Under the pieces are notes generated by a model. That model was not told the origin of the DNA. It was given only the letters and a program-made list of their open reading frames with translations, and did not search any database. Shown one piece after another: positions 5,792 to 24,866 of a stretch of DNA of 64,000 bases. The DNA is from Spirochaetia bacterium (GTDB lineage Bacteria; Spirochaetota; Spirochaetia; DSM-2461): positions 608,001 through 672,000 of the forward strand of contig CAXXIA010000002.1 of the NCBI GenBank assembly GCA_963666985.2, given 5' to 3'. Every line of letters starts with the position of its first letter. The stretch's first letter is position 1. The translations under genes were made by a program, and so were the position numbers.

Positions 5792-7278
5792 GCCGCACCC
5801 CCTTCCGAAACGGCTGCGACGGCATTCATATGTTTGATAACATGATTTCGAATCATCAGACGCCGATAGTCTTCCGATCCTCGGATATCCGAAATAACCG
5901 GAAATCCCGCCGCCAGTTCCTCCGCGCAGTTTCCGACCGCTTCATCATCGGGCCGGCCGTGAAGCGCGGCGACATCGGGAATAACGACGGGTGTCGGTCC
6001 CGCGCCTCCGAAGGCGATTCGGCAGAGTGCGACGCCGTCCGCATCCAATGTCGCCGCAAGGCAGGAACTCAAACCGGAGATATCAACACTCTTTCTCTTC
6101 GAAGATTTCTCAAAAAAGCCGACGGTATTCTTAGCGCGCGGCAGAATGATCGACGCGATCACCTCTCCGGCGGTCAAAGCCGTTTTCTTGTAGCCGAGGA
6201 AAAAATCCGCGAGAGGCACAATCCGCGTACCCGCCGAACTTTTCAGTTCCAAAGACGCATTCAATCCCAAGAGAATGACGGATAAGTCACCGACGGGAGA
6301 GGCATTGCCGATATTCCCGGCCACGGTGGCTGTGTTCCGAATCTGCCGGGAAGCGATCAGTCCTTCCGACGCCGCGATAACGGGAAAAGCCTTTCGAATC
6401 TCCGGATGTTCCATGAACCGCGTTACGGACACCGCCGCGCCGATCCGAATCGATTCGGAACCGGCTTCCAGGGCGTTCCATCCTTTTACGGAACCGATAT
6501 CAACGAATCGGCGGATTTTCGAACCTCCCGCGTTCATCCGTACATAAACGTCGGTGCCGCCGGCGATGAATTCATAATCTTCCGAAATACCGCCCAAAAG
6601 GCTGAAAAGCGCCTCTTCCGTTTCCGGCCGGTCATAAACCGCCGGAGAATAAGGAAGAACCGCGGAACGTAACGGTCCGTAGGGCATTGATGCGGAAGAG
6701 ATGGTTTCGGGCGGCGGAAATCCTTCTTTCAGCGCCTCTTCGACGCGTTTCGCATATTTCGGAAGGACTGTTGCATCACCGTCCTTCAATCCGGTACGAA
6801 CCGCTCGTCCGGCATTCCTGATACCTTCATAACCCGTACACCGGCAGATGTTCCCATCCAAAGCCATCGCGAGATCTTCGTCGGAAGGATCGCGGTCTCC
6901 GGCGAAAAGGCAGAACATCGACATGACAATACCTGGAGTGCAAAAACCGCACTGAACGCCGTGCTTATCGATGATTCTTTCCTGTACGGGATTCAGGGCG
7001 TCCGCTTCGGCCAAACCCTCAACGGTAATCAGGTGCTTCCCGTGAAGCTTCACCGCCGGATAAATACAGGAAGCGGCGGCTTCGTATGTAAACCGACCAT
7101 CACGCCAAACGCCCAAAGCCACCGTACAAGCACCGCAGTCCCCTTCCCGGCATCCGGCTTTGGTTCCGAAGAGCTTATGCTGTTCATGCAGAAGATTCAG
7201 AACAGTCGCTCCCGGAGCAACGGGATGCGCCTGTTCTTCCCCGTTCAGGAAATATCTGATGAATAATCCGTTTTCCAT
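5788..7278 (-). CDS. xdhA: Xanthine dehydrogenase small subunit (two [2Fe-2S] clusters plus FAD domain)
   Basis: GCREGDCGAC, QCGFCTPG, GNICRCTGY, IAGGTD, QIRNTATVAGN; 4-bp overlap with xdhB. Confidence 0.92.
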   Translation of the reverse strand: MENGLFIRYFLNGEEQAHPVAPGATVLNLLHEQHKLFGTKAGCREGDCGACTVALGVWRDGRFTYEAAASCIYPAVKLHGKHLITVEGLAEADALNPVQERIIDKHGVQCGFCTPGIVMSMFCLFAGDRDPSDEDLAMALDGNICRCTGYEGIRNAGRAVRTGLKDGDATVLPKYAKRVEEALKEGFPPPETISSASMPYGPLRSAVLPYSPAVYDRPETEEALFSLLGGISEDYEFIAGGTDVYVRMNAGGSKIRRFVDIGSVKGWNALEAGSESIRIGAAVSVTRFMEHPEIRKAFPVIAASEGLIASRQIRNTATVAGNIGNASPVGDLSVILLGLNASLELKSSAGTRIVPLADFFLGYKKTALTAGEVIASIILPRAKNTVGFFEKSSKRKSVDISGLSSCLAATLDADGVALCRIAFGGAGPTPVVIPDVAALHGRPDDEAVGNCAEELAAGFPVISDIRGSEDYRRLMIRNHVIKHMNAVAAVSEGGAA

Positions 7279-7289
7279 GCAATTCCCGC

Positions 7290-8045
7290 TTATGAAAGAT
7301 AGACGTCCTGCCGGCGAAGCAGACTCAGATTGACGTATTCGGTATCCATGAACGCGTCGACATGCATTACGGGCTTGTTCTTCGCCGTGTAATACACCGA
7401 TTCCAAAAGAAGCAGCGGTTTATCCCCTACAATCCGGTACAGCTGCCCATGATCCGGAAGCTTCGCGGACGTTGTGGCTTTAACCTGAACGATGTCGTGG
7501 GTTACGATAATCCCGGCGTGTTCGAGCAGATATTCAAAAGTGGACTGCGCCAAATCCCCTTCCCGGATACCGCCGCCGATCAGACTCTCGGCAAAAAAAT
7601 CTTCGCAATAAATAACAGGCATGCCGTCGGCATAAAAAATCTTTTTAGCACAGACGATACGGTCTTCCTCGTCCAGCCGGAGTCCTTTCCGAATCCGCGC
7701 TTCGCCCGAATCAACGGTGACTTCCACCAATTCCACGCTGGATTCATACCCGTTTTTCTCTATGGCCTGTCCGAATTCCACGGCCGGGCTCAGCGTGACT
7801 TTCATTCCCATGGCCTCCATGTTGATGAAAGTCCCCTTTCCCTGAATCTTGTAAATAATCCCTTCCTGCTCCATCTCGGTTAAAACATCTCGGACCGTTA
7901 TACGGCTCACACCGAGTTTCTCGGCCAGTTCATGCTCACCGGGAAGCTGTGTCTTTTTTTCCTTAACCAAGAGATGAACGATTTTTTTGAGGGAGCGTCG
8001 GACCTCAAATTTCAATGAAATATTCTGAATCGGATTAATTTCCAT
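7290..8045 (-). CDS. GntR-family regulator with UTRA domain (HutC/DasR type)
   Basis: LPGEHELAEKLGVSRITVR...QGKGTF winged HTH and a UTRA-like C-terminus; ATG at 8045 preferred over TTG at 8060. Confidence 0.9.
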   Translation of the reverse strand: MEINPIQNISLKFEVRRSLKKIVHLLVKEKKTQLPGEHELAEKLGVSRITVRDVLTEMEQEGIIYKIQGKGTFINMEAMGMKVTLSPAVEFGQAIEKNGYESSVELVEVTVDSGEARIRKGLRLDEEDRIVCAKKIFYADGMPVIYCEDFFAESLIGGGIREGDLAQSTFEYLLEHAGIIVTHDIVQVKATTSAKLPDHGQLYRIVGDKPLLLLESVYYTAKNKPVMHVDAFMDTEYVNLSLLRRQDVYLS

Positions 8046-8086
8046 TTTCCCCGCTCTCAAAAACCGACATTACCGTCATGTTGTTT

Positions 8087-8099
8087 GTTGTCATACAAC
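8087..8099. promoter_or_regulatory. Putative GntR/UTRA operator GTTGTcatACAAC
   Basis: Palindrome about 40 bp upstream of the regulator, resembling HutC-subfamily GT-N-TA-N-AC sites. Confidence 0.55.
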
Positions 8100-8132
8100 T
8101 TATAACATAGAGAAGATAGATATAACATGACG

Positions 8133-8166
8133 ATCTTTTTACGGCAAGCGTTTGCCGTAAAAAGAT
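8133..8166. terminator. Intrinsic terminator hairpin ending the 8.2-17.5 kb operon
   Basis: ATCTTTTTACGGCAA-gcgt-TTGCCGTAAAAAGAT: perfect 15-bp inverted repeat with A/T tracts. Confidence 0.65.
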
Positions 8167-8212: not shown

Positions 8213-10837
8213 CTATTCCAAAAGTTTTCGGAACACCGGATAGGTATCGACCATCACATAAGCCCGAAGAGGTCCGTCGATTTCTTCATCCGGCAATTCC
8301 AGACCGATTTCCTTCAGGAAACCCGAATCGTCGGAAAGCGTTTCGATTCCTCTCGCGTAATCGGCGGGAATCGCCCTTCCCGTCCGGGAATCCACCAGCA
8401 AGATGCCGAGAACATGATCCGCACTCACGAGAGTCGAATCGCGGAATCGGGCCAGGATGCGGGAATCCTTCATTTCGAGATCAACATCTCCGAGAGAAGC
8501 GGCGGGAGGCAATCCCGCCTCCTCCATGATCGAAACCCGTGCTCCGCCGCTGACATTGATGATTCCGGTGCTGCGGTCCGCCATTCCGGCCAGCTTTAAA
8601 AACCGCCCGTAGAATTCAATATCCTCTCCCCTCGCGAGGCAGTTGAACGCGAAATCCGAAAATCCGCCGCCGGGAAGAGGCGTCGAATTACCGGCCAGCC
8701 GAAAGAGGCTGAACGGCATATCCCAGGAACCGACGAACTTCAGGGAAACATCGTCGTAGGTGCTCATCGTCAGCGCACTGCCGGACTGCTCCAGCCTCAT
8801 CGTAAAGATATCCTTGAATTCCGGGGCCACGACGGTTTCGCCGGTCTCTTCATCCAACTTTCCCTGAATCACCCAGAGAAGGGCGGCCTCATCGTCACCC
8901 TCCACCACCGATGCCAGGTAGTGCAGGGAATCGAATCCGATCTGATTGTACGAGGGGAGCATGGTCGGGTACGGACAGGAAAGCCTGCTGATTTCGAAAA
9001 CAGTCGCGGGAGATCCCTTTCCGTCCGGAATCCGCAGGGAAACCGTTCTTCCGGCCGATCTATGAATATCAAGAACGAACTCACGATGCACTTCGCCGCT
9101 CTTGTGGCCTCCCCAGAACATCAGGCCGAGACGTTTTCGGTGTGTTTTATACTCACCGTTTATACTGAGACTGATCCTCTGGCCGCTCCAGGTTTCCCGG
9201 GGGATAAGAGTGATATACGCATCGTTGGCCGCGTAATCGCAGCGGAAATCTTGAGGGGGATCGAAAACCACGCTCAGGGATTTTCGATCCAGGGCCGAAA
9301 GAATGGTATCGCCGTCCTCTCGGGTGAACAGGGAAAACGTCAGAGGGCTGTTGGCTCCGATTTTTATCCGATCGTCTTGAGTCAGGGATGCAAACGGCGT
9401 GGTGTACAGAAGCGCCGCGCCGTCATCCGGCAAATCTTCTCCCCGGCCGACGGTGGAGCGCTTATCGCCGCGGCCGGCCGCGCTCAAGGGATAATCGTAG
9501 GGAACCAGGAAAACACCGCCGCTCTCGCCCGCGATGACAATACCGTCGGGACCGAGCGCGGGCGATGCGTTCATGTCGTTCCGCACATCGTCGATACAAA
9601 GATACTCCCACCGGAGAGTACCGTCGGAATTCAGGCAGAAAAGCTCTCCCGAACCGGTCCCGAAATAAATCCGGTCCCCGCCGTCAACGGCCGGTGAAGA
9701 CCGAATGGGTTCCAGGGAGTCGAAAGCCCAAACCAATTCGCCGTTTTCGGGTGAAAGAGCATACACCGTTCCATCGGCGGAGGGCTGAATAATCGTTCCG
9801 TCCGATAGCTGCGCCGGGCTGGAATAAAGATGATCCCGAGCCGCGAATTTCCACTGACGGTGTCCCCTCCGCGCGGAATACGCTCTGAGAAAACCGTCAT
9901 AGCCGCCGAGCACGACGGATTCTCCGGTCAAGAGAGGAGAGGCGGCGTTGGTGCCCAAACCGCCCTTTTTCCATAGCCGCTTGCCGGTTTCCGCGTCGTA
10001 ACAGAACACGTTGGAAAGCACTGTAAAATTGGAACCGAAGAAGATTCGGCCGTTTTCGGCGTCAACGGCCGCCAGCGACCAAATCATCTCATTGGCCGGA
10101 TAAACGCCCTTGGGTTCTCCGGTGTCGCGGTCCAGCCGGTATAAAAGGTAATTGTCGTTCGGCGCCAGAATATCGCCGCCGGGCAGCATCGCGATGTTTC
10201 CTTCGAACCAGGCGACATTGAAGGTTTTTATCCCGTACTCCTCTTCCACTTCTTCGGGGGTATGGGCTTCGAAACTCCAGATCTTTTTACCGGTTTTTCT
10301 CTCCAGACAATACACATGCCTGTCGCCCGATCCGAAATACACCCGGCCCCGGTCGTCCAGAAGCGCCGAAGAATCGATGATTTCATCCGTGGCGACACGC
10401 CATTTCAAAGAGCCGTTGGGATTCAGGCAGTAGAAGTAATGATCGGCCGATCCGATGTAGATATTCCCTTCGCCGTCGATAACGGGAGAACTGAAAATAC
10501 CTTTCCCGGTGGGGAACTCCCACGGCGAATCAACCGTTCCGCGACCGTCCTCCGAAACGGATCGGTCGATTTTTCCGCTCTGCCGGGCATCGGCGCGGAA
10601 TTTCGGCCACCAGGCGTCCGGATCGAGGGGTACTTCGCCGGTAAGGCTGCCGGCGCTTTCTCCTGCGGCCTTGTCGGCAGCTTCCGCTTCCGGAACAGCC
10701 GCGCCTTCCCTCGCCGATCCGCCGAACCTTTTCCCCTCGGCATCACAAGAGATCAAAAAGACCGCTGAGATTAAGAGAAAAAGAACCCAAGAAACGAATC
10801 GGGACGGCGCTTTTGTATGCATTCGGTTTCCTACCAT
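8213..10837 (-). CDS. Lipoprotein with PQQ/BamB-like beta-propeller repeats and a large C-terminal domain of unknown function
   Basis: Lipobox-like VFLISC; repeated SSPxID..G.IY.GS.D...YCL....G..KW blades; overlaps the upstream gene's stop. Confidence 0.8.
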   Translation of the reverse strand: MVGNRMHTKAPSRFVSWVLFLLISAVFLISCDAEGKRFGGSAREGAAVPEAEAADKAAGESAGSLTGEVPLDPDAWWPKFRADARQSGKIDRSVSEDGRGTVDSPWEFPTGKGIFSSPVIDGEGNIYIGSADHYFYCLNPNGSLKWRVATDEIIDSSALLDDRGRVYFGSGDRHVYCLERKTGKKIWSFEAHTPEEVEEEYGIKTFNVAWFEGNIAMLPGGDILAPNDNYLLYRLDRDTGEPKGVYPANEMIWSLAAVDAENGRIFFGSNFTVLSNVFCYDAETGKRLWKKGGLGTNAASPLLTGESVVLGGYDGFLRAYSARRGHRQWKFAARDHLYSSPAQLSDGTIIQPSADGTVYALSPENGELVWAFDSLEPIRSSPAVDGGDRIYFGTGSGELFCLNSDGTLRWEYLCIDDVRNDMNASPALGPDGIVIAGESGGVFLVPYDYPLSAAGRGDKRSTVGRGEDLPDDGAALLYTTPFASLTQDDRIKIGANSPLTFSLFTREDGDTILSALDRKSLSVVFDPPQDFRCDYAANDAYITLIPRETWSGQRISLSINGEYKTHRKRLGLMFWGGHKSGEVHREFVLDIHRSAGRTVSLRIPDGKGSPATVFEISRLSCPYPTMLPSYNQIGFDSLHYLASVVEGDDEAALLWVIQGKLDEETGETVVAPEFKDIFTMRLEQSGSALTMSTYDDVSLKFVGSWDMPFSLFRLAGNSTPLPGGGFSDFAFNCLARGEDIEFYGRFLKLAGMADRSTGIINVSGGARVSIMEEAGLPPAASLGDVDLEMKDSRILARFRDSTLVSADHVLGILLVDSRTGRAIPADYARGIETLSDDSGFLKEIGLELPDEEIDGPLRAYVMVDTYPVFRKLLE

Positions 10838-12594
10838 GCCGGATTCTCCCAGGTTCGCCCGGCAAACCGGGGTTTGCGTTTTTCCTCGGGCGACAGATCG
10901 AGTCCCAGAGTGCCGCCGGGATTCATAATGAGGTTCGGATCAAAGTGCTTTTTCAGGGTCCGGAACAGATCCATTGCCTCGAGGCCGATGGAATCCTCCA
11001 CCCATCGGGCGGTCATCTTGCCGACTCCGTGATGGTGGCTCATGGATGCCCCGGCGGCCTGGATGTTGTCGAAAATGCCGTACTGGTACTCAAGATATTC
11101 TTCTTTGTCCCGGAACTTCCCGATGAAGATGAAATACAGATTGGCACCCTGGGGATAGGCATGGGAAAGATGCGTCATGCAGATGGTCCCGGGTCGCGAT
11201 TTGGCGAATCGGCGAACGAATTCATGAACCTCGCCCATCCTATCCCAGGTAACGCCGCATTCCATCGTATCGATGATAATCCCGTAATCCTGGAGGGACT
11301 CCCTCATGTAAGGATCGCTGAAACGGCCGTGCTCCCAGCTTGTCACCGGATATCCGGTTAAGAACAGACCGCCGCGGCGCCTGCAGATTTTCTTGGTTCT
11401 TCGAGCCAGATTCCGGGCGAAGCCCTTCTCCCCCTCGCTCCAGCCGAGAAGCAGACACCTCTCCATTTTCTTATAGCCGAGAGCGTTCATCGCACTCTCC
11501 AGAACCGTGCCCTCCACCTTGTAGAGTTTGAGCATCACGTCTGTTTCCTCGGGGTCCGACAAGCGGAATACCGACGGATATCCGGCCTCGTCCTGCATAA
11601 TTTCCCTGGCGGCGTCCCGGGCCTCCTCCCAGCTGCGGAAAATAAAACTGAATTTGCGGCGATTCTTCGCCGTCAACCGGTGAATTTTCAGCGTAACGTG
11701 CGTGAGCACGCCGAAGGCGCCCTCGCCACCCATCATAATCTCATCGATTTCCGGACCCACGGCATGGGCGGGAAGTCCGTAGCTGGAAAGGGGGCCGCGC
11801 GGCGTGGCGTAGTCCTGCCCCATCACCATGTTGCGGATATTTCCGTAATACGTGGAATTCTGCCCGGCCCCGCGGGTTACCACCCAGCCTCCGACGGAAG
11901 AATATTCGAACGACTGGGGAAAATGACCGCAGGTATAGGCCTGATGAGCGCCGAAAAGTTCGGGAGCCCGATTCAGCGACTCCTCAAGATGGGGCCCCGA
12001 GATGCCGGACTGAACGGTGATGGTATGGTTCGTTTCGCTGAACTCGATGACTTTGTTGAAATGCCGCCTCATGTCCAGGGTGATTCCGCCGCACACGGCT
12101 TCAACTCCCCGGGTTACCGAAGATCCGCCTCCGTAAACATAGAGGGGAATTCGGTGCTCATCGCAATAGGGAACCAGAGCTTCAATCTCTTCCTTCTCGG
12201 CCGGATACACCACCGCATCGGGAATGTTTTCAATAATGTTCTCCCGCAGCCGGTAAAGGTCGTACATGGTTTTCCCATAGGCAACCGACAGCCTCTCGTA
12301 GGTTTTCGTACTGACGCGGTTTTCCCCGAAAAGACGAATCAGGAACTCAAGATGAGAGGAATCCAGTTTGCAGGGTACATCGTCCGGAACCGTTTCCAGA
12401 CCGAGTGCCTCCTTCCTGCGAAAATCGTCATCGCTTAAGGAGAAGGTTTCTTTCATTAAGGAAAAAAGCCGCTCGTTGGGCTCTTTGAATTCCCGCGGAT
12501 CGCCCCACTTGGCGATGGAGCGAAAACTCTTCTCGGGAGGAGGAACCACTTCCCATTCGGGTTTGAAGCCCTTGTACTTTTTCCGTTCGGCCAT
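10831..12594 (-). CDS. FAD-linked oxidoreductase, alkyl-dihydroxyacetonephosphate synthase-like (VAO family)
   Basis: YGGGSSV, GHFPQSFEYSSVGGW, RGAGQNSTYYGNI, GEGAFGV, RLSD, GANLYF and SHHHGVGK. Confidence 0.85.
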   Translation of the reverse strand: MAERKKYKGFKPEWEVVPPPEKSFRSIAKWGDPREFKEPNERLFSLMKETFSLSDDDFRRKEALGLETVPDDVPCKLDSSHLEFLIRLFGENRVSTKTYERLSVAYGKTMYDLYRLRENIIENIPDAVVYPAEKEEIEALVPYCDEHRIPLYVYGGGSSVTRGVEAVCGGITLDMRRHFNKVIEFSETNHTITVQSGISGPHLEESLNRAPELFGAHQAYTCGHFPQSFEYSSVGGWVVTRGAGQNSTYYGNIRNMVMGQDYATPRGPLSSYGLPAHAVGPEIDEIMMGGEGAFGVLTHVTLKIHRLTAKNRRKFSFIFRSWEEARDAAREIMQDEAGYPSVFRLSDPEETDVMLKLYKVEGTVLESAMNALGYKKMERCLLLGWSEGEKGFARNLARRTKKICRRRGGLFLTGYPVTSWEHGRFSDPYMRESLQDYGIIIDTMECGVTWDRMGEVHEFVRRFAKSRPGTICMTHLSHAYPQGANLYFIFIGKFRDKEEYLEYQYGIFDNIQAAGASMSHHHGVGKMTARWVEDSIGLEAMDLFRTLKKHFDPNLIMNPGGTLGLDLSPEEKRKPRFAGRTWENPAW

Positions 12595-12603
12595 ACGATC
12601 CTC

Positions 12604-14154
12604 CTAGAGTTCCGGATATCCGGTAATGCCCTGAATGTCGCGAAAAATCCCTTTCAGGCGGGGATAAATTTTGCGGTACACATTGAAAAGTTTTTCATAA
12701 AGTGATGATTCTTCGGCTCGCGGATAAAAGGTGCGCTCGGTTCGAACCATGCGCCGAACCGCTTCGTCGATGGAAGGATGGATTCCCATGCCCACGGCCG
12801 TTAAAACGGCGGCGCCAAGCCCCGAAGTTTCATAGGTGCTCCCCCGGGTGAGCGGCCGGCCGATGATGTCGGCGGAAATCTGGCAGATCGCGTTGCTCTG
12901 GCTGGCGCCGCCTGATGCCGCCACGCGGTTCACATTGAATCGTCCCCGCCGTTCCAATGTTTCCAAACCGTCGCGCAGGGCGTACCCGAGTCCCTCGATT
13001 GTGGCCCGATACAAAGACCCGCGCGTGTGTACATCCCCGAATCCCACGAAGGAACCTTTCGCCAGAGGATCTTTCAGTCCCGCGCTCCAGTAGGGCTGCA
13101 TCATCAGTCCGCGGCATCCGGGCGGTTCGGTTTCCAGAAGACGGTTCAGGAGTTCTTCCGGAATCACGCCGAGCGTTTCCGCCTCGGCGATTTCCTTCTG
13201 GCCGAGTTCGTCGCGGAACCAGCTGATCATCCAGTATCCCCGATAAATCTCAATCTCGGGCAGCCAGGAGCCGGGATAGGCCGCGCAGTAGGCCGGAAGG
13301 AAAGGCAAAGGTTCGAAATACCGATCGGTTGTTACCTCGACGGTCGCGGTGGTTCCGAAACTTAAAGACGCCGCGCCGCGGTCCAGGCAGCCGGACCCGA
13401 TGGTCTCGCAGCTCTTGTCGCTGCCGCAGGCGAAAACGGGAATGCCCTCGGCCAGTCCCGTCGCCAGGGCGGCCTCGGCGGTTACCTCGCCGCCTTGCTC
13501 ACCGGCTTCCATCAGTGCGTAGAGCTTTTCTTCCTCAACGGGAAAAAGCTTGCCGTAAAGCGATTTCGGCCGCGCCCACCGTCTCTTGCGGAAATCCATC
13601 GGGACATGTCCCACCATGGACGCGACCGAATCGAAGGGAACGCCGGTGAGCCGGTAGTTGAGAAATCCGGAAACCTGCACGTATTTCCACGTCCGTTCCC
13701 AAATCCCGCTCTGGTTTTCCCGAATCCAGCTGCATTTGCCGTCGCGCATGGACTTCCGGATGGCCTTATCCTTGCCGACCAGATGGAAAGCGGCGCTCAT
13801 AAACGGATTCGGACGGTACGATCCTTCGGCTTTCCGCGAATCGAGCCAGGTAATGGCCGGACGGAGAACGCCGCCGTCTTCGGCCATGTTGATCATCGTA
13901 TCCCTTTGGGCGGTTACTCCCACACCGCCGATTTCGGCGAACGCTTCCGGGTGGCGAATCTTCAGCCGGCGGCAGCCGTCAACAAGGGAATCCCAAAACA
14001 GCTCGGGATCCTGCTCGGCCCATCCGGGCCTGGGCGACCGATACGGCGCGTAATCCCTCTTTTCCTTGGCAAGAAGATTCCCATCGGCATCGAAAATCAG
14101 TGTTCTCAGGCTCTGCGTGCCGCAGTCGATTGCAAGAATTGTTTTCTCAGCCAT
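12604..14154 (-). CDS. FGGY-family carbohydrate/glycerol-type kinase
   Basis: LAIDCGTQSLR, GWAEQDP, TAQRDT, WLDSR, SFGTT, SGGASQS. Confidence 0.92.
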   Translation of the reverse strand: MAEKTILAIDCGTQSLRTLIFDADGNLLAKEKRDYAPYRSPRPGWAEQDPELFWDSLVDGCRRLKIRHPEAFAEIGGVGVTAQRDTMINMAEDGGVLRPAITWLDSRKAEGSYRPNPFMSAAFHLVGKDKAIRKSMRDGKCSWIRENQSGIWERTWKYVQVSGFLNYRLTGVPFDSVASMVGHVPMDFRKRRWARPKSLYGKLFPVEEEKLYALMEAGEQGGEVTAEAALATGLAEGIPVFACGSDKSCETIGSGCLDRGAASLSFGTTATVEVTTDRYFEPLPFLPAYCAAYPGSWLPEIEIYRGYWMISWFRDELGQKEIAEAETLGVIPEELLNRLLETEPPGCRGLMMQPYWSAGLKDPLAKGSFVGFGDVHTRGSLYRATIEGLGYALRDGLETLERRGRFNVNRVAASGGASQSNAICQISADIIGRPLTRGSTYETSGLGAAVLTAVGMGIHPSIDEAVRRMVRTERTFYPRAEESSLYEKLFNVYRKIYPRLKGIFRDIQGITGYPEL

Positions 14155-14506
14155 GGTTGAAAGCTCCCGTTGCGATCACATCGATGCCTGTTCCGCCCAA
14201 ATCGGCGGCAATGACATCGCCCGGCAGGCAAGATGAGGTCAGGAGGATTCCGGCCGCAAGACGCATGAACTCATCCATGGCGTTTAAAGGGACTTCCGGC
14301 GCGAGACGAACAGGGACCCTGGGGATATCGGTCAAATCGGTTTTAACGGTTGTGGTCAGAACGCGGAGAGGGTTCAAAGCCTCCTGCCTGCCGTACCCTT
14401 CTCCCCTGGGGCACTGTTGTCCGGTCACTCTCAGCTCTCCCGAATCATCGGAAAGGACCAATCGGCAGCCCCTCGGACAGACAATGCAGGTAATGGTTTT
14501 GCTCAT
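14147..14506 (-). CDS. DUF1667-family small metal-binding protein
   Basis: TCIVCPRGC...CPRGEGY...NPLRVLTTTV; typical third subunit of G3P dehydrogenase clusters. Confidence 0.85.
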   Translation of the reverse strand: MSKTITCIVCPRGCRLVLSDDSGELRVTGQQCPRGEGYGRQEALNPLRVLTTTVKTDLTDIPRVPVRLAPEVPLNAMDEFMRLAAGILLTSSCLPGDVIAADLGGTGIDVIATGAFNHG

Positions 14507-15793
14507 TTAGTTCCTCACCCTTTCGGGGATGGGCGCCATCCGAAGTGTTAGAGATTCTCCTTCGACGGGGAAACCGGCGGAAGGAATCTCAACACGGATC
14601 ATTTCAGACGGCTTGGGCCACATCAGCTTCCGGCCGAACACACGGTGCTCCCCCTGCTCAAGAATAACTTCCGCCGCCTCCGCGCTCTTTCTGCAGCGGA
14701 AAAAAAGCGAAAGATCGCCCTTGAGAGGAACGCGGATTCGCTGCGGAACCGCGTAGGCAACGCCGTCACCGGGCTCAAGATTCAGGAATGAATCATCGGC
14801 TGCACGGCGAAACACCGGATTCAAAGCCGACTCCGCGGCTTTTTCACCGGCAACAGCGCCGCTCTCGGTCACGTAATCCACAAGGTCGTAGACCTGCAGG
14901 GCGTTCCCGCAGGAAAAGAGTCCCGGAATCGTCGTTTCCAAGTTCTGATCCGCCGCCGGCCCCCCGGTATCCGAATCCATATCCGCACCGAGCGGCGCAA
15001 TCAAATCGTTCTCCGGAATAAGCCCGACGCTGAGTATAAGGCAATCGCAGGGAACAAACTCTCCGTTTTCGTTGTGCGGCTTTCCGGATTTGTCGACTTT
15101 TCCGACGGTAACGCCCTCTATCCGCTTTTTCCCATGGATTTTGCTCACAGTCGTGTTCAGATGCAGAGGAATATCGAAATCCTCCAGGCACTGCGCGATA
15201 TTGCGGGTGAGTCCGGAAGGCTCCGAATTGATCTCGTAAACCCCGACAACTTCGGCTCCCTCCAAAGTGAGCCTCCGGGCCATGATAAGACCGATATCGC
15301 CGCTGCCGAGAATCACGCATTTCCTGCCGGGAAGAAGACCTTTCATGTTGATTAAATCTTGCGCCTGCCCGGCGGTCAGGACGCCCGCGGGCCGCTCCCC
15401 ATGGATAAAAACCTGACGATCGGTTCTCTCCCGGCATCCGGTGGCCGCAACAAGAGAGGCGGCTTCGATGTCCCGAACACCGTTTCTGTTGACGATTCTG
15501 AGCCGGAATCCCTCTTCACGGCGCTCCAGCCGGTTTAAAAAGGTGTCCGTCATCACCGTAATGGGCCGTTCGCGAACCAGCGTTTCGCAGCGCCAGGCAT
15601 ACTCCGGTCCCGTCAGCCGTTCTCCGAATCGGAGAGTGCCGAATCCGTCATGGATGCACTGCTTTAAGATGCCGCCGAGCCGACTCTCCCGTTCGATAAG
15701 ACACACATCGGCCCCGCGGTCGGCGGCCGCGACGGCCGCGGCCAGTCCCGCCGGACCGCCGCCGATGACGATAACGTCCCATCGGCGGCTCAT
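14507..15793 (-). CDS. NAD(P)/FAD-dependent pyridine nucleotide-disulfide oxidoreductase
   Basis: IGGGPAGLAAA, GGILKQCIHDGFG, ATGCRER, ILGSGDIGLIMARR, CGNALQVYDLVD; start set to the ATG at 15793 overlapping the upstream stop. Confidence 0.9.
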   Translation of the reverse strand: MSRRWDVIVIGGGPAGLAAAVAAADRGADVCLIERESRLGGILKQCIHDGFGTLRFGERLTGPEYAWRCETLVRERPITVMTDTFLNRLERREEGFRLRIVNRNGVRDIEAASLVAATGCRERTDRQVFIHGERPAGVLTAGQAQDLINMKGLLPGRKCVILGSGDIGLIMARRLTLEGAEVVGVYEINSEPSGLTRNIAQCLEDFDIPLHLNTTVSKIHGKKRIEGVTVGKVDKSGKPHNENGEFVPCDCLILSVGLIPENDLIAPLGADMDSDTGGPAADQNLETTIPGLFSCGNALQVYDLVDYVTESGAVAGEKAAESALNPVFRRAADDSFLNLEPGDGVAYAVPQRIRVPLKGDLSLFFRCRKSAEAAEVILEQGEHRVFGRKLMWPKPSEMIRVEIPSAGFPVEGESLTLRMAPIPERVRN

Positions 15794-17541
15794 GGAGCGG
15801 CTCCCGTTTTGGTTTCCGCCACCGCGATTTCGGAACCCGGCCCCTTCTTGCTGATTTCCAAAAGATCCAATCCCATCTCTTCGGCCATAACCCCGATAAT
15901 CCGGGGCAGACAGAAGCCGCCGTGACATCGCCCCGCCCCGGCCCGGACACGCCTTTTTACGCCGTCGACCGTAGTCGCCGGCGGATTCCGGCGCAGAGCA
16001 TCGCGGATTTCCCCTCGGGAAACCTCTTCGCACCGGCAGAGAATTTCCCCATAAGACGGATCTTGATGAATCAGCGCGTCCCTCTCGGCGGCATCCATGT
16101 CCCGCAGAGAAGGGATGGGCGTTCTTACGGGATTGAATCCGGGATTGTCCGAAACATACCGTCCTTGCGCTTCCAGCATGTTCACAGCCCAGCCGGCGAT
16201 GTCCTCGGCGATGGCGGGAGCCGAGGCCAGGCCGGGCGACTGAATGCCCGCGGCATGAACAAGATTCGCCACTTTATCCGAAGGTCCGACGATGAAATCC
16301 TCTTCCCAGGTTGCGGCGCGGACACCGGAGTAATAATTGATGATATAACGGCTCGAAAGGGCTTTGTTCAGATCCAGCTGCCCCAGAAGCGACTGAAAGA
16401 CGGCCGCATCGGTGGAGAAATCCTCTCTGCCCGGAACCTCCTGTGCGGTCGGCCCGATGAGGAGATTTCCCTCCACGCAGGGCACCACGCCTCCGCCCTT
16501 GCTGTGGCTGGAACGCCCGGAAAAAATCCGGGGCATACCGGAGATCCGCGTCTGAAAAACGCCGCAAACGGCATCCAGAATCGCGTCGGTACCTTTGCGT
16601 CCGTGAATGGAAAAAAAACGGTCTCCGGCCATTTCGGCGACTTTATCCGACCAAACCCCTGCGGCATTGACCAAAAGTCCGCAGCCGAAGATGCCTCGGT
16701 TCGTAACCAATTCCTTGATTCGCCCCTCTTCCATGCGAATATCCCGCAGGACCGTCCGGAAATGAAACTCGCATCCGTTTTGGGCCGCGTTTTCCGCCAG
16801 CGCCAAGGTCACCCTGTACGGAGAGACGATGCCGGCGGACGGCATGAAGAACGCGCCTTTCTGTTTATCGGTAACCCACCTCTCCATTCGCCGCACCTCG
16901 GCGGCGCTCAGGCTTCGATACTCTCCGTCCACGCCGTTCCTGCGGCACCGCATCTTGAAAACGGGAACAAGCAGCCGATGGAATGCGGTTCTGTACAGAA
17001 GCAGAGAACCCGGCCTTTTCAATTCAAAGTTCAGCTCTTCGGCCCATCGGCCGTACATTCGATTCCCTCGAACGTTGTAGAACGCTTTTCGCGTACCGGG
17101 CTTGGCCGCGAATCCCGGATGAATCATGCCGTCGTTGCGGCCTGAGGCCTGCATGGCCGCATCTTCTTCTTTTTCAATAACCGCTATGGAAAGATCGTAA
17201 CGGCTCAGTTCCCGCGCTATGGCGCACCCGATAACTCCCGCTCCGACGATAACGACATCGTATGAACGGCCCTCAAGCGCATCGTCTTCCAATTCGGGCT
17301 CGGCCATGGGAGCCTCCGGAGCTTCAGAGGCAACAATGTCGTTCAGAACTCCCCGGTATCCTTTCCCGGCCGCGGCATATCCGGCACGAACCTTTTGCTC
17401 CCATGTTTCCACGGTTCCGGTCAGCCTGACGGACCGGTCGATAATGTCCGCCTTAAGATGTCCCAGTCCCGCTTTTTGCAAAGCTTTTTCGACGGCCGCC
17501 GGATTACCTGGAGTCTTCTTACCGCCCGCTCGAATCACCAT
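15790..17541 (-). CDS. GlpA/LhgO-like FAD dehydrogenase with N-terminal BON-like domain and C-terminal BFD-like [2Fe-2S] domain (glycerol-3-phosphate dehydrogenase-like)
   Basis: VGAGVIG, SGRNDGMIHPG, NAAGVWSD, GIQSPGLASAPA, CRCE...GRCHGGFC; N-terminal VRLTGTV...GVLNDI. Confidence 0.85.
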   Translation of the reverse strand: MVIRAGGKKTPGNPAAVEKALQKAGLGHLKADIIDRSVRLTGTVETWEQKVRAGYAAAGKGYRGVLNDIVASEAPEAPMAEPELEDDALEGRSYDVVIVGAGVIGCAIARELSRYDLSIAVIEKEEDAAMQASGRNDGMIHPGFAAKPGTRKAFYNVRGNRMYGRWAEELNFELKRPGSLLLYRTAFHRLLVPVFKMRCRRNGVDGEYRSLSAAEVRRMERWVTDKQKGAFFMPSAGIVSPYRVTLALAENAAQNGCEFHFRTVLRDIRMEEGRIKELVTNRGIFGCGLLVNAAGVWSDKVAEMAGDRFFSIHGRKGTDAILDAVCGVFQTRISGMPRIFSGRSSHSKGGGVVPCVEGNLLIGPTAQEVPGREDFSTDAAVFQSLLGQLDLNKALSSRYIINYYSGVRAATWEEDFIVGPSDKVANLVHAAGIQSPGLASAPAIAEDIAGWAVNMLEAQGRYVSDNPGFNPVRTPIPSLRDMDAAERDALIHQDPSYGEILCRCEEVSRGEIRDALRRNPPATTVDGVKRRVRAGAGRCHGGFCLPRIIGVMAEEMGLDLLEISKKGPGSEIAVAETKTGAAP

Positions 17542-17560
17542 ATCTTTCCCCTTGACCGGC

Positions 17561-17577
17561 TGGTGGTTTTACCACCA
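17561..17577. promoter_or_regulatory. Putative FadR-type operator TGGTGGT-ttt-ACCACCA
   Basis: Perfect 7-bp inverted repeat over the predicted +1 of the operon; FadR-subfamily sites are typically TGGT-Nx-ACCA. Confidence 0.7.
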
Positions 17578-17582
17578 AAATA

Positions 17583-17611
17583 ATGTTACCATGCCGGCCG
17601 GCGGTTGTCAC
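17583..17611 (-). promoter_or_regulatory. Sigma70-type promoter of the dehydrogenase operon
   Basis: GTGACA-N17-TAACAT on the minus strand. Confidence 0.55.
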
Positions 17612-17729
17612 TGAAAATAATCGCGCGGGCGGGGAAGGCTCTTTTCAAAAGAGCGGATGCGCCTCTGGTTAGAGTGAAACTCGCAGATCGCGGCCGCAGG
17701 AGCGCAAAATTTGAATGAGCCGCACAGCT

Positions 17730-17758
17730 TTGACATCATCAAAGAGTTTCCCTACCAT
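17730..17758 (+). promoter_or_regulatory. Sigma70-type promoter of the FadR-like regulator
   Basis: TTGACA-N17-TACCAT. Confidence 0.65.
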
Positions 17759-17784
17759 CGGAAACAATGCGGAGCCGATAAAAC

Positions 17785-18489
17785 GTGGATACATCACTGT
17801 TCCGGCCGCTCTCGGCCGTCAGTCTGAAAGACGAATTCATCCTGAGGATGGAAGAGCTGATCTTCGATGGAGATTTGAAGAACGGCGACAAGCTTCCCCC
17901 GGAGCGCGAGCTGGCCCGGCTGTTCGGAATCTCCCGGCCCGTGGTTCACGAAGGGATTCTGGCTTTGGAATCACGGGGATTGGTTCGAATCAGGCCGAGG
18001 CACGGAGTGGTGGTACGGGATTACCGGAGAAGCGGGACTCTGGATTTACTCCTCTCTCTCCTCAACCGGCCGGAGCACGAAATCGGGCCGTTCATCGCGC
18101 GGGATTTGGAACGGGTCCGCATCAAAATGGAACAGGATATGACGCAGCTCATTTGTGAATCGCCGAAAGACATTAAAGAAGAACTTCGGGAGCTGTCGGA
18201 AATCAACGAATCAATGAAAGGACTCGGCAATCCGGAGGAAATCGCAAGGGAGGATTACCGGTTTCACCTGGTGCTGGCTTTGGCTTCGGGAAACGCCGTT
18301 TACGCCCTCTTGATGAACACGCTGAAACCGGCGCATATGCATCTTCTCGGCCGGTTTTATCGGAATCCGTCGGTTCTGGAACGCGTAATCGCCTATCATG
18401 AAAAGTTCATAGAACTCCTTGAAAACAAACGGCTTGATGCGCTTATGGCGCTGATTGAACAAGCCGACTCCTACAAGGGTTACCTATAA
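17785..18489 (+). CDS. FadR/GntR-family regulator with FCD domain
   Basis: GDKLPPERELARLFGISRPVVHE; DYRFHLVLALASGN. Confidence 0.92.
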   Translation: MDTSLFRPLSAVSLKDEFILRMEELIFDGDLKNGDKLPPERELARLFGISRPVVHEGILALESRGLVRIRPRHGVVVRDYRRSGTLDLLLSLLNRPEHEIGPFIARDLERVRIKMEQDMTQLICESPKDIKEELRELSEINESMKGLGNPEEIAREDYRFHLVLALASGNAVYALLMNTLKPAHMHLLGRFYRNPSVLERVIAYHEKFIELLENKRLDALMALIEQADSYKGYL

Positions 18490-18857: not shown

Positions 18858-19134
18858 CTCTCCGAACCTGATGCCGAATTGCAGGATGAACTTCAGCCGG
18901 ATTTGAACAGGCCGTCTTCTCCACGGTCCGCCAAGAGTCCATATTCTTAACCGTAATTACGGCACCGAAAAAGTCTCCGTTTCGGTTCATTAATACGTCA
19001 ATTGAGACAATTACGCCATCCATTCAATGATACCCGCCAATTCCACTTCTGTTGGTATTATAGAAATTCTCTATCATATTTCGAGCTGTTCGTTTTATTT
19101 ATTTTCACCACATAACGTTTTCATGAGATAAAAG

Positions 19135-19162
19135 TTGACTTCCCGCATAAATAACCTATAAT
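19135..19162 (+). promoter_or_regulatory. Sigma70-type promoter for the SDR gene
   Basis: TTGACT-N16-TATAAT with an AT-rich upstream region. Confidence 0.55.
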
Positions 19163-19223
19163 AATTTCATTCTTTACACACGCTTATTCGGCGGAAAAGA
19201 AATCACTATTCAGGAGATGAAAA

Positions 19224-19979
19224 ATGAAATTAATTGATAAAGTTGTTTTGGTAACAGGAGCCGGATCGGGATTGGGACGCGCTTCCGCCCTTGCTTTTGC
19301 AGAGGAAGGAGCGAAAGTCGTTGCCGCCGATATCGATCAAAAGGCCGGAGAAGAAGCTTCCTCTCTTATCAACGAACGAGGCGGTCAAGCCATTTTTGTA
19401 AAAACCGATATTACGAATGAGGCAAGTGTTAAGGCTTTGATTGATACCGTTATTCAAACTTATGGGAAACTGGACTGCGCCCACAACAATGCCGGCATCA
19501 TGATCGGCGGTCCGATAATCGATATCGACGAGAAAGACTGGGACAAACTGATGAGCATTAATCTTAAGGGAACATGGCTGTGCATGAAGCATGAGCTGAT
19601 TCATATGCTGACGAATCAGGAAGGAGTCATCATTAATACCGCATCGGCGGCGGGTTTGTCGGCTTCGCCCAATACGGCCCTTTACGGTACCAGCAAATGG
19701 GGAGTAAACGGATTAACGAAATCCGCGGCCATTGAGTATGCCAGGCAGGGCATAAGGGTTAATTCCATCTGTCCCGCGGGCATGAAGGGAACAAAGATGT
19801 GGCTTGATACATTTGAACAAGATCCGGCCTTATCGGCGCAGCTTACCGAATCCGTTCCCATGGGCCGAGACACATCCCCTGAAGAGGTTGCAAAAGTCGT
19901 TGTCTGGTTATGCACGGATAATGCATCATTTATAACAGGGGTTAATATGCCGGTAGATGGAGGGATGTCCTCCCTCTGA
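19224..19979 (+). CDS. Short-chain dehydrogenase/reductase
   Basis: TGAGSGLG, NNAG, YGTSK catalytic motif, VDGG. Confidence 0.95.
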   Translation: MKLIDKVVLVTGAGSGLGRASALAFAEEGAKVVAADIDQKAGEEASSLINERGGQAIFVKTDITNEASVKALIDTVIQTYGKLDCAHNNAGIMIGGPIIDIDEKDWDKLMSINLKGTWLCMKHELIHMLTNQEGVIINTASAAGLSASPNTALYGTSKWGVNGLTKSAAIEYARQGIRVNSICPAGMKGTKMWLDTFEQDPALSAQLTESVPMGRDTSPEEVAKVVVWLCTDNASFITGVNMPVDGGMSSL

Positions 19980-20135
19980 CGATATTCTTCACAACAAAAA
20001 GGATTATTGGGTATCTTCGTTCTAAGATCTCCCTGGAAAATCGTATGGACTTTCAAGGGAGATATCATAAAAAATACGAAGAGAATAAATAACTTCCGTC
20101 ATCTTTATGCCGTTATTCGGTGCGGGGTACACATT

Positions 20136-21044
20136 GTGATTGATAAAACAAGTTTTAAGATAATGAACGAATTGCGAAAAGACGGCCGTGCGACAAATGT
20201 CGAGATAGCGCGTAAGCTGGGAATAAATGTCGCTACCGTGGCAAAAAAAATCAATTCCATTATCGAAAAAGGGATGATCGTTATTAACGCGATGCCGGAT
20301 CCCATTATTATGGGATACAGAGTAAAAGCCCTTATCGGTCTAGAAGCCGAACCGAAACAAATTGACACCGTCTGCAGCTTCCTTCAACAAGACCCTCACG
20401 TACATATGGTCAGTTCATGTCTTGGAAGATTTGATATTCTCGCCATCGTATTCTTTGAAAACATCGTACTTCTTCAGGAATATTTAAAAAATGATCTACC
20501 GAAAATTAACGGTATCAATCATTTTGACGTTTTCTTTATGTCCGACTATAAGCGCGATTTAAACACGATGGAAGATCCCTCGGGAACAGGACAGATTCCC
20601 GCACTTGACGATCTTGATAAAAAAATCATCGCCGAACTTATCCGCAACGGAAGACCGAATTATGCCGACATGGCGGAAAAGCTGCAAACCAGCAAACCGA
20701 CGATTTCACGAAGAATAACAAATCTCCTCAAAGATAAAATCATTCAAATAATTGCTATTCCCAATTCATCTAAAATCGGTTTTACGGCGAATGCATATGT
20801 CCTGATCAAAGTACAGCCTGCGATGACCGAGGGAATCTGTGAAAAGTTAAAAACGTTTGAAGAAATACATATCATGATGCGGGTTATGCAGGGTTTTGAT
20901 ATATTCCTTGGGATTTATTCGTTTAATCTTGATACTTTGTACAAATTCCTGCACACAACGATTGGAAGCATGGACGGTATAATTAAAATCGAGACCTTTA
21001 TTTGCGGTGAATTTTTCTACTTAAAACACTGCACGCTGAGATAA
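20136..21044 (+). CDS. Tandem (double) Lrp/AsnC-family regulator; start uncertain
   Basis: Two HTH+RAM units: ELRKDGRATNVEIARKLG and ELIRNGRPNYADMAEKL. Confidence 0.85.
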   Translation: MIDKTSFKIMNELRKDGRATNVEIARKLGINVATVAKKINSIIEKGMIVINAMPDPIIMGYRVKALIGLEAEPKQIDTVCSFLQQDPHVHMVSSCLGRFDILAIVFFENIVLLQEYLKNDLPKINGINHFDVFFMSDYKRDLNTMEDPSGTGQIPALDDLDKKIIAELIRNGRPNYADMAEKLQTSKPTISRRITNLLKDKIIQIIAIPNSSKIGFTANAYVLIKVQPAMTEGICEKLKTFEEIHIMMRVMQGFDIFLGIYSFNLDTLYKFLHTTIGSMDGIIKIETFICGEFFYLKHCTLR

Positions 21045-21046
21045 AA

Positions 21047-21080
21047 AAGCTGTTTTTTCATAACTATAAAAAAACAGCTT
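21047..21080. terminator. Bidirectional terminator-like hairpin between convergent genes
   Basis: AAGCTGTTTTTT-cataactata-AAAAAACAGCTT. Confidence 0.6.
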
Positions 21081-21099
21081 ATATCCATAATCGGTAACA

Positions 21100-21771
21100 T
21101 TATAAATCTATAAAATCCGGGGGCAATGGGAGTCCGTCATAATGCCCGATCTTACCGGTATAGGGCTGATGAAAGCTTGTCGGTGCATCCGGTTTAATCA
21201 TCTCTTCTTCCTTCGTGCCCTTAACATCGCTTCCTTCAATAACAGGTTCCTCAACCCAGCCCTTATCATAGGAAGTTCTGAAAATCAGGTGCGCCCTAAA
21301 CTCAAGGAATTTCCATTGGCCGTCTTCCCGAACGAATTTTTGATTGTACTTCATGCACTGCCAGATGGCCACAACGCCTTTTTCGGGGTCTAAAAAAGTA
21401 TTCGCGCCCAAGTGCAGCCACATTCCTTTAGCGGTATTTCCATCTTCCAGAATCTGAATAACCGGGGTTGTAAGCTCATGAACGGCACAATTCCCTTCAT
21501 AATTATACAATTTGCCGAGAACTTCGATAAAAACCCGTCTTACGCCTTCAATTCCATGGAACTCACCGCTGCCGCCCAATTCGGCTTTTACACCGGGAGT
21601 TTTTTGGGCGAATAAGTCATCACAGATTTTCTCCCAATAATGCCCCAGCGCCAAATGATTGTACCTTCCGTGCAGATTCGCTATTTCCACCCAATCCCTG
21701 GCGATACGCCCGTTCTTCTCGGCTTCCTCAATTCTCTTTAATAAACTTTCATATTCCGTCGATTCAACCAT
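21100..21771 (-). CDS. SnoaL-like/NTF2-fold protein
   Basis: EIANLHGRY, HELTTPVIQILEDGNTAKGMW, FVREDGQWKF. Confidence 0.8.
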   Translation of the reverse strand: MVESTEYESLLKRIEEAEKNGRIARDWVEIANLHGRYNHLALGHYWEKICDDLFAQKTPGVKAELGGSGEFHGIEGVRRVFIEVLGKLYNYEGNCAVHELTTPVIQILEDGNTAKGMWLHLGANTFLDPEKGVVAIWQCMKYNQKFVREDGQWKFLEFRAHLIFRTSYDKGWVEEPVIEGSDVKGTKEEEMIKPDAPTSFHQPYTGKIGHYDGLPLPPDFIDL

Positions 21772-21816
21772 ATATAAATACTCCTCATTATGTTGTTCAG
21801 CGATGGTTAACAGTCA

Positions 21817-23112: not shown

Positions 23113-23588
23113 GCGATATCTCCTTTTATGATTTTCCCTACCTTTTCAATAATGATGGCGATCATGGATATGCAAAGAAGAGCAAAACCGATTGTCATAA
23201 TCAGTTGAAACGGATAATGCGGTAAATTGAGCAGCGTGCTCTTTATGTGTGTGGAATGCATTGCATCCTTCAGGCTTTCAAACGTTATAAGAATCATTAT
23301 GAGCAAACCTGCCGATAAGGTGATGCAGTCCAGAACGGCCTGCACCCTTTTGGGGAAATGAGAAACAATGATATCGACACTGACATGGGAACCGGATAAG
23401 GCACACCACGATAGAGAAGGGAAAACAATAATAACAATGATAAATTCCGTTAAATCGGTAACTCCTCTAATGGGAGAATTAAAGAAATAACGCAGAAAGA
23501 CATCGACCACAGTCAATAATGTCAGGGGAAGAAGTAATGAGGATCCTGCAATGCAGAATGCTTTGCTGATGGAATTCAAACGCTTCAT
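23109..23588 (-). CDS. dctQ: TRAP transporter small permease
   Basis: DVFLRYFFNSPI, HVSVDII; four TM helices; overlaps dctM. Confidence 0.9.
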   Translation of the reverse strand: MKRLNSISKAFCIAGSSLLLPLTLLTVVDVFLRYFFNSPIRGVTDLTEFIIVIIVFPSLSWCALSGSHVSVDIIVSHFPKRVQAVLDCITLSAGLLIMILITFESLKDAMHSTHIKSTLLNLPHYPFQLIMTIGFALLCISMIAIIIEKVGKIIKGDIA

Positions 23589-23694
23589 TTCACGTACCTT
23601 TTCATGAGAAACATTTTCTTTAAGGAATAATCATTTTCGAGGCACAATCCGACCGGCCGGCTTAAAACCGGACGATCATATTGTGCCTACATTA

Positions 23695-24759: not shown

Positions 24760-24866
24760 TCTCTTCTCCTTTTCACATTTACCTTGGACTTAATTTTCTT
24801 GATTCTTTTACGAATCGTTTTTACAACATCCAATTTTCCATCAGCATCGGAATCAGGAAATTGCAG

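Follow-up and report, generated by a model that had tools for sequence, protein, structure and literature searches.

A 64,000-nucleotide (nt) stretch of the genome of a Spirochaetia bacterium (GenBank assembly GCA_963666985.2, contig CAXXIA010000002.1, positions 608,001 to 672,000), referred to here as the window, carries an operon encoding an AGPS/ADPS-family flavoenzyme, an FGGY kinase, and an FngABC-type glycerol-3-phosphate (G3P) dehydrogenase trio, with a divergent FadR-type regulator beside it (Table 1). The host genome is 4.86 Mb in size and 93% complete. These genes constitute a real, conserved system, which is a variant of a known, uncharacterized set of enzymes from known families and shows signs of lipid specialization. 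The reading that we prefer, to which we give somewhat less than an even chance, is that scavenged 1-O-alkylglycerol would be phosphorylated, oxidized, and then cleaved or exchanged without O2 by the operon enzymes, probably at the membrane. Its fullest form, a membrane-adapted, O2-independent cleavage of a saturated alkyl ether bond by a catabolic AGPS-family etherase fed by a BON-fused bifurcating dehydrogenase, is a more tentative proposal. In this pathway, the FGGY kinase would first produce 1-O-alkyl-G3P, and operons lacking the kinase could start from lyso-ether phosphatidate instead. The trio, by analogy with FngABC, would then oxidize C2 to yield alkyl-dihydroxyacetone phosphate (alkyl-DHAP), with reduced ferredoxin driving NAD+ reduction, and a GlpD-type enzyme would take its place in respiring hosts. 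Following the AGPS mechanism, the flavoenzyme would form a covalent flavin-DHAP adduct and expel the fatty alcohol (ROH), after which water could release DHAP to enter glycolysis, or a fatty acid could produce acyl-DHAP, which the reversible Fng trio might convert to lyso-phosphatidate for membrane salvage. 1-O-Alkylglycerols survive digestion and represent an available substrate (PMC13596139).

The flavoenzyme possesses FAD_binding_4 and FAD-oxidase_C domains, and its best PDB matches are the Dictyostelium ADPS (2uuu; E value of 1e-61, 212 bits) and the guinea pig enzyme (4bby; 1e-50, 176 bits). Its matches to glycolate oxidase and D-lactate dehydrogenase are far weaker (E values of 3e-18 or weaker, at most 69 bits), and the GlcD model gives 110 bits against a cutoff of 568, which rules out a 2-hydroxyacid dehydrogenase identity and upholds the AGPS-like assignment made in the initial annotation of this DNA, where the SHHHGVGK and GANLYF motifs, both present, had also been pointed out. 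R352, R447, Y508, and the HHH loop of the Dictyostelium enzyme align in the PDB alignments with R344, R431, Y487, and H520 to H522, and the helix preceding R447 aligns without gaps. The first three residues are required for catalysis in Dictyostelium, and AGPS is described as a ping-pong enzyme with a covalent flavin-DHAP adduct and a C16 channel, the first half-reaction of which frees a fatty acid (PMC3509576). The sequence of the window protein also aligns through the regions of the C16 hydrophobic tunnel and gating helix. Among 89 long-family proteins, the three catalytic residues and HHH are retained in 88 to 89, the single gap being a cut sequence, and D303 (guinea pig numbering; H-x-P-D-S motif) is replaced by Q in all 89. 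In a tree built with FastTree only, from 128 rows (111 cluster representatives and 17 locus proteins, with no eukaryotic row), the window's family, 15 D303 proteins, and the YgcU group formed three separate branches. The sole acyltransferase-AGPS fusion sits in the D303 branch, outside the window's clade. Fusions of AGPS to GlpD were found in 4 of the 16 long representatives scanned (four protein clusters), all belonging to branches outside the window's own. Other unusual architectures include AGPS-like domains fused to NUDIX in two clusters near the window's family (P0250 and P0257) and a long AGPS-like open reading frame (ORF) that runs into carbonic anhydrase and SDR matches (L117:9509-12883), possibly an assembly artifact. 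In addition, the AGPS of a small-genome spirochete (G040; L037:8588-10354) is of the D303 type and differs from the window's family in that neither a kinase nor a dehydrogenase gene lies close to it.

The gene neighborhood was surveyed at 91 loci, 11 of them from relatives and 80 being the best of at least 590 GTDB matches, which span Spirochaetota, Bacillota, Thermotogota, Chloroflexota, Thermodesulfobacteriota, Myxococcota, Bacteroidota, and others. Neighbors were scanned at 35 of the first 60 cluster or locus representatives, and neighbor clusters 0 and 1, which were mostly shadow ORFs, were dropped. The Fng trio, the FGGY kinase, and the AGPS-like flavoenzyme form a conserved five-gene module. 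Where at least 6 kb is available on each side (48 loci), a G3P-type dehydrogenase adjoins the AGPS-like gene in 43 cases, so that the genes are indeed co-conserved elsewhere; the Fng trio is found at 30 loci, a GlpD-type enzyme at 14, both at 1, and neither type at 5. This adjacency, together with the AGPS-GlpD fusions, indicates that the substrate of the flavoenzyme is probably a DHAP derivative supplied by the adjacent dehydrogenase. GlpD-type enzymes are quinone-linked oxidizers (PMC13689815), which favors the oxidative direction. The kinase, present at 30 of the 48 loci and always with a dehydrogenase, is an optional partner that is loosely tied to the AGPS-like gene; at least two AGPS genomes (G049 and G061) have none. 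No acyltransferase, reductase, or transporter recurs near the AGPS-like genes across the 91 loci. Sporadic neighbors are lipid genes, namely, diacylglycerol kinase, DegV/FakA, acyl-CoA synthetases, and Fe-alcohol dehydrogenases, and the diacylglycerol kinase stands in a scattered case where the FGGY gene would be. The initial annotation had placed six genes in one operon; the conserved pathway takes in five of them, with the kinase optional, and not the PQQ-type propeller gene. The latter occurs at 0 of the 91 AGPS loci, and 11 homologs in 150 other genomes yielded eight fetched loci, all eight without any operon gene nearby. The PQQ lipoprotein is thus ruled out as a pathway member and is, judging from this distribution, a passenger in the operon. 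Its family, about 860 amino acids (aa) long with an unnamed C-terminal half, has members in Spirochaetota, Desulfobacterales, Anaerolineae, and Asgard archaea.

The trio had been described as a GlpA-like G3P dehydrogenase, an assignment that holds and can be refined to an electron-bifurcating type in a BON-fused clade. FngABC of Pyrococcus furiosus has been purified as a reversible, electron-bifurcating G3P oxidoreductase dependent on ferredoxin and NAD, and about a third of FngABC are expected to act on polyols other than glycerol; the main text of that study mentions neither "alkyl" nor "FGGY" (PMC13689815). The FngB motif is QCIH in the window and in 37 of 47 proteins, and QCIH or QCVH in all 47. 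Window FngA has a BON domain at residues 16 to 70 and an acid-free segment at residues 182 to 197. PF04972 is matched by 15 of 30 BON-FngA members at E values up to 0.01, a profile of the FngA N terminus matches OsmY (8rjx; E value of 6e-4), and the BON-like extension is present in 42 of 43 full-length FngA proteins from AGPS loci. In 61 Spirochaetia genomes, the 12 with a long AGPS are the same 12 that have a close full-length BON-FngA, and two further genomes carry a more distant BON-FngA and no AGPS. In 120 Clostridia genomes, 35 FngA matches were scored, 4 of which start in the BON region, and the only three genomes with a long AGPS are among the 4 with a BON-region FngA. Residues 182 to 197 contain on average 0.43 aspartate and glutamate residues (D/E) in 47 AGPS-linked FngA proteins versus 4.04 in 23 plain ones; the segment is also more hydrophobic in the AGPS-linked set, which forms a clade of its own, and ranks first along the protein for the difference in both acidity and hydrophobicity. 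It can be read as a membrane-facing surface. The BON domain and the acid-free segment, with a similar change in the kinase, would point to lipid substrates. The genome holds a second, BON-less Fng trio. An AGPS-less sister module, consisting of a divergent SorC-type regulator, an APH-family kinase (PF01636 in L127 and L128; a similar start in L139), and BON-FngABC, was found at three loci (L127:6143-11658, L128:7584-13073, and L139:4778-11436). It may be a second substituted-glycerol route, because the alkylglycerol kinase ACAD10 has a protein-kinase-like fold.

The kinase scores far beneath all FGGY model cutoffs, including that of the GlpK model TIGR01311 (140 versus 590 bits). Its predicted fold is FGGY (pLDDT 93.5), and a fold search returned general FGGY matches only, at 20 to 25% identity, with sugar kinases as the closest folds. 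A quick tree placed it in a clade of 62 rows that is sister to YgcE and separate from GlpK. With pocket residues labeled by what we take to be the E. coli GlpK numbers, the equivalents of D10, R83, W103, and D245 are retained in comparison with GlpK-like rows, and all 62 rows depart from GlpK at three other positions, with mostly D or N for E84, K for Q246, and T or A for F270. A GlpK identity is ruled out by the model score, the three changed residues, and the separate clade. Motifs and tree position identify another kinase of the genome as GlpK-like, and sugar kinases are plentiful in this host (15 FGGY_N matches). The Y135 loop of GlpK is replaced in the window kinase by two helices (residues 117 to 125 and 129 to 138). 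In a position-matched test chosen afterwards, residues 115 to 127 showed fewer acidic residues (D/E of 0.03 versus 2.2) and higher hydrophobicity (0.36 versus -0.04), and residues 128 to 140 showed the reverse pattern; the evidence for a hydrophobic segment is weaker in the kinase than in FngA. Operon-type kinases (65 to 71% identical) also stand alone in four related genomes (L120 to L123, around 8982 to 11157), where they adjoin a histone-deacetylase-domain gene, a class IV aminotransferase gene, and a SET-domain gene.

The operon might instead serve ether-lipid synthesis or remodeling, in which lyso-phosphatidate, from PlsY or from monoacylglycerol via the kinase, would become acyl-DHAP, the acyl group would be swapped for a fatty alcohol in the manner of animal AGPS, and the Fng trio would yield alkyl-G3P. 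No other chemistry has been shown for the AGPS family (PMC3509576), and this direction was the one proposed for the PA3026-PA3024 genes of Pseudomonas aeruginosa (PMC8151288); we nevertheless consider it unlikely here. Since FngABC is reversible, the trio and AGPS would form a self-contained cycle, and kinase-less operons would fit it. The genome also lacks a DUF2229 gene, presumably the marker of PlsA/Ger, and encodes a FAAL-ACP-thioester-reductase. However, FAR-type reductases occur in only 2 of the 12 Spirochaetia genomes with AGPS (versus 6 of 49 without), and for the biosynthetic set of GNPAT, FAR, and AGPS, neither an acyltransferase nor a fatty-alcohol-forming reductase is a recurrent neighbor. 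The FAAL-ACP-thioester-reductase (1118 aa; L162:9920-15176, G000:C2:2255919-2261175) lies in a separate cluster with an acyltransferase and a GT2 glycosyltransferase; this cluster likely makes a fatty-alcohol-based glycolipid, and its presence in relatives does not track that of the AGPS operon. The replacement of the trio by a GlpD-type enzyme at 14 of 48 loci, the single repressor-type operator over the predicted transcription start (+1), and the patchy distribution (3 of 120 Clostridia) would suit an inducible pathway for use or salvage better, and the scarcity of FAR-type reductases and the split from the acyltransferase-fused D303 clade also argue for that direction.

Salvage of ester lipids, in which monoacylglycerol or lyso-phosphatidate would be the substrate and the flavoenzyme would hydrolyze or transacylate acyl-DHAP to give DHAP and a fatty acid, would agree with the departure of the fatty acid in the first AGPS half-reaction (PMC3509576). 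The lipid-facing features of FngA and the kinase fit it equally, as do the DegV/FakA, diacylglycerol kinase, and acyl-CoA synthetase genes among the neighbors, and a role as monoacylglycerol kinases would suit those kinases that stand alone. Lipases, however, split ester lipids in one step, and a three-step route that is costly in ATP and redox is hard to justify unless the bond resists hydrolysis; we judge this explanation to be quite unlikely. It is improbable, in our view, that the substrate is small and soluble (a short glyceryl ether, a glycerol-linked osmolyte, or another polyol) and is phosphorylated, oxidized, and then cleaved or isomerized by the flavoenzyme. The use of other polyols by many FngABC (PMC13689815), the D-K motif and clade that the kinase has in common with YgcE, its nearest folds, and a host rich in sugar kinases and without beta-oxidation would suit such a substrate, but sugar transporters, epimerases, and aldolases are not recurrent at the 91 loci, nothing would explain the BON domain or the acid-free segments, and long AGPS proteins keep helices at about residues 350 to 377 that are absent from YgcU. 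Plain catabolism of glycerol or G3P, with the AGPS-like gene as a bystander, is very improbable: FngABC oxidizes G3P (PMC13689815) and the kinase retains the R83, W103, and D245 equivalents, but the genome already has a GlpK-like kinase and a plain Fng trio, the other three pocket positions are changed throughout the clade, and AGPS-GlpD fusions occur.

Several observations weigh against alkylglycerol cleavage itself. YgcU retains most of the AGPS catalytic residues, so an alkyl substrate cannot be read from them. A carboxylate leaves more readily than an alkoxide, and net hydrolysis is something that AGPS is only said to perform. The kinase is missing at 18 of the 48 loci and occurs without a long AGPS in 7 of the 16 relatives carrying it, and no transporter is conserved at the AGPS loci. 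Kinase residues 108 to 140 (best 11-mer) showed no excess of hydrophobicity (0.47 versus 0.48 in controls), and the position-matched test was selected after this first test showed no difference. The BON domain of window FngA scores 23.7 in Pfam, below the gathering cutoff of 27, three genomes have a BON-FngA without AGPS, and each lipid-facing trait counts as one event because it is confined to one clade. In addition, BON domains are not generalist lipid binders according to the DolP paper (PMC7806268), and deletion of PA3026-PA3024 in P. aeruginosa gave no phenotype (PMC8151288). The FAAL-ACP-reductase could in principle make a fatty alcohol, and no acyl-CoA dehydrogenase was found in the window's genome, which therefore could not burn the released chain; 4 of the 12 AGPS genomes lack this enzyme at an E value of 1e-20. 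The gain from cleavage would then be DHAP or a reusable chain rather than full oxidation.

TABLE 1 Features of the operon region, with positions in the window
Feature	Position	Strand	Basis
Perfect hairpin, 15-bp stem, after last gene	8133..8166	-	Folding versus shuffles
PQQ-type beta-propeller protein, lipoprotein-like N terminus; overlaps AGPS-like gene	8213..10837	-	Pfam
AGPS/ADPS-family flavoenzyme (R344, R431, Y487, H520-H522)	10831..12594	-	Pfam, PDB matches, family alignment
FGGY kinase, clade sister to YgcE, not GlpK	12604..14154	-	Pfam, model scores, tree, fold model
FngC, DUF1667, Cys7/10/14/32, predicted [4Fe-4S]	14147..14506	-	Pfam and cysteine motif
FngB, NAD(H)-binding flavoprotein, Gln-Cys-Ile-His motif	14507..15793	-	Pyr_redox_2 and motif
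FngA/GlpA-type flavoprotein (DAO and BFD [2Fe-2S]), N-terminal BON domain and acid-free hydrophobic/basic segment	15790..17541	-	Profile scans, clade comparison
Palindromic operator TGGTGGT-N3-ACCACCA over predicted +1	17561..17577	.	Unique exact copy, footprinting
Predicted sigma-70-like promoter, GTGACA-17-TAACAT with TG	17583..17611	-	Consensus match only
FadR-subfamily GntR regulator (GntR HTH and FCD/FadR_C), divergent	17785..18489	+	Pfam matches, orthologs at operon in relatives

The ORFs, junctions, and Pfam matches confirm the six tightly spaced minus-strand genes and the divergent plus-strand FadR-type regulator at the coordinates given in the initial annotation. The junctions are, in operon order, a 4-nt overlap, a 0-nt gap, an 8-nt overlap, a 9-nt gap with GGAGG, and a 7-nt overlap, and we infer from the sequence that the six genes are cotranscribed. 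The same gene order, including the PQQ gene, is found on a contig of about 98% identity from a second study. The regulator matches GntR (E value of 2.5e-15), FCD (1.8e-14), and FadR_C (7e-12), scores beneath every NCBIfam cutoff, and has orthologs adjoining the operon in relatives; it is likely a repressor of the operon. The sigma-70-like site, read from 17611 to 17583, has 9 of 12 consensus matches, and the promoter prediction is weak alone because eight such sites were found versus 5.8 expected from shuffles. The palindrome noted at +1 is confirmed as TGGTGGT-TTT-ACCACCA, starting 5 nt after the end of the predicted -10 box, and this exact sequence occurs once in the window and nowhere else in the genome. 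Its assignment as an operator is supported by phylogenetic footprinting at 26 loci scanned near a FadR-like gene: it recurs within two mismatches at 10 of the 11 loci where identity to the window's regulator is 35% or more, 5 of these being exact, and at 1 of the 15 with more distant regulators, where it lies inside a gene. A wider regulon was not found in the genome (one exact site, none at one mismatch, and two at two mismatches). The terminal hairpin proposed earlier does have a stable stem (z score of -4.08; 0 of 200 shuffles equally stable) but lacks a U-tail and was not among the hits of the terminator scan; it is likely a transcript end or stabilizer. Beyond the operon, the window contains xanthine-dehydrogenase-like genes, judged from sequence (3458 to 7278, within 3458 to 8100), behind a GntR/UTRA regulator (7290 to 8060) that has the palindrome GTTGT-ATG-ACAAC upstream (about 8087 to 8099). 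A region with a G+C content of 41 to 49% (19000 to 26000), compared with about 57% in the operon, holds short-chain dehydrogenase, AsnC-like regulator, and TRAP-like transporter genes and was possibly acquired.

Alkyl ether bonds withstand lipases and gut digestion (PMC13596139), and the operon would, if our reading is true, provide a route for alkylglycerol recycling by anaerobes of guts, digesters, and sediments. A route through alkyl-DHAP would explain how ether lipids turn over where guts and sediments lack oxygen. It would also mean that AGPS chemistry can serve catabolism and that electron bifurcation reaches a lipid substrate. A 2026 study left the AGPS phylogeny unresolved (PMC13012113), and a preprint on sponge symbionts took agps hits as synthesis markers (10.64898/2026.06.23.733905). 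Because ether-lipid studies use AGPS hits in this way, the widespread clade described here may be miscounted as synthesis.

The window flavoenzyme shares the fold and the R/R/Y and HHH residues of AGPS/ADPS (EC 2.5.1.26; 2uuu, 4bby; Myxococcus MXAN_1676), whereas its family has Q for D303 and forms a clade separate from the D303 bacterial proteins; the partners of AGPS/ADPS are GNPAT and FAR, and those of the window enzyme are a kinase and a G3P-type dehydrogenase. YgcU and YgcE of E. coli, cited as a parallel in the initial annotation, do belong to related families (29% and 28% identity, a sister kinase clade, and shared D-K motif, HHH, Y, and first Arg), but family alignments and trees place them in a different, shorter subfamily (484 and 492 aa) without the AGPS helices and kinase segment 112 to 140, and their neighbors are Etf-like flavoproteins, SDR, and transporters. 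To our knowledge, AGMO is the only known glyceryl-ether-cleaving enzyme. It sets the precedent for O-alkyl bond cleavage (InterPro text) and, as a monooxygenase, needs O2. ACAD10 is a precedent for alkylglycerol phosphorylation in salvage, with a protein-kinase-like rather than an FGGY fold (PMC13596139). The P. furiosus FngABC has the same three-gene order, domains, FngB QCIH, and FngA and FngC cysteine motifs as the window trio (PMC13689815), but window FngA is about 90 aa longer owing to the BON domain, belongs to its own clade, and is acid free at residues 182 to 197, and the window operon adds a non-GlpK kinase and the AGPS-like gene. No publication testing or describing the anaerobe operon or a BON-fused FngA was found in a search that mostly excluded subscription journals. 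By its published description, PA3026-PA3024 of the GliR regulon of P. aeruginosa comprises the same three enzyme types, an FGGY kinase, a GlpD homolog, and an oxidoreductase suggested to make alkyl-DHAP, with a linked lipid kinase gene, and was proposed in silico to convert glycerol to alkyl-DHAP; it has an AraC activator and GlpD where the window has a FadR-type regulator and FngABC (PMC8151288). The enzyme set itself is thus already in print as an idea in the synthesis direction, to which the present analysis adds an FngA clade of its own with a BON domain and an acid-free segment and a kinase with a similar change.

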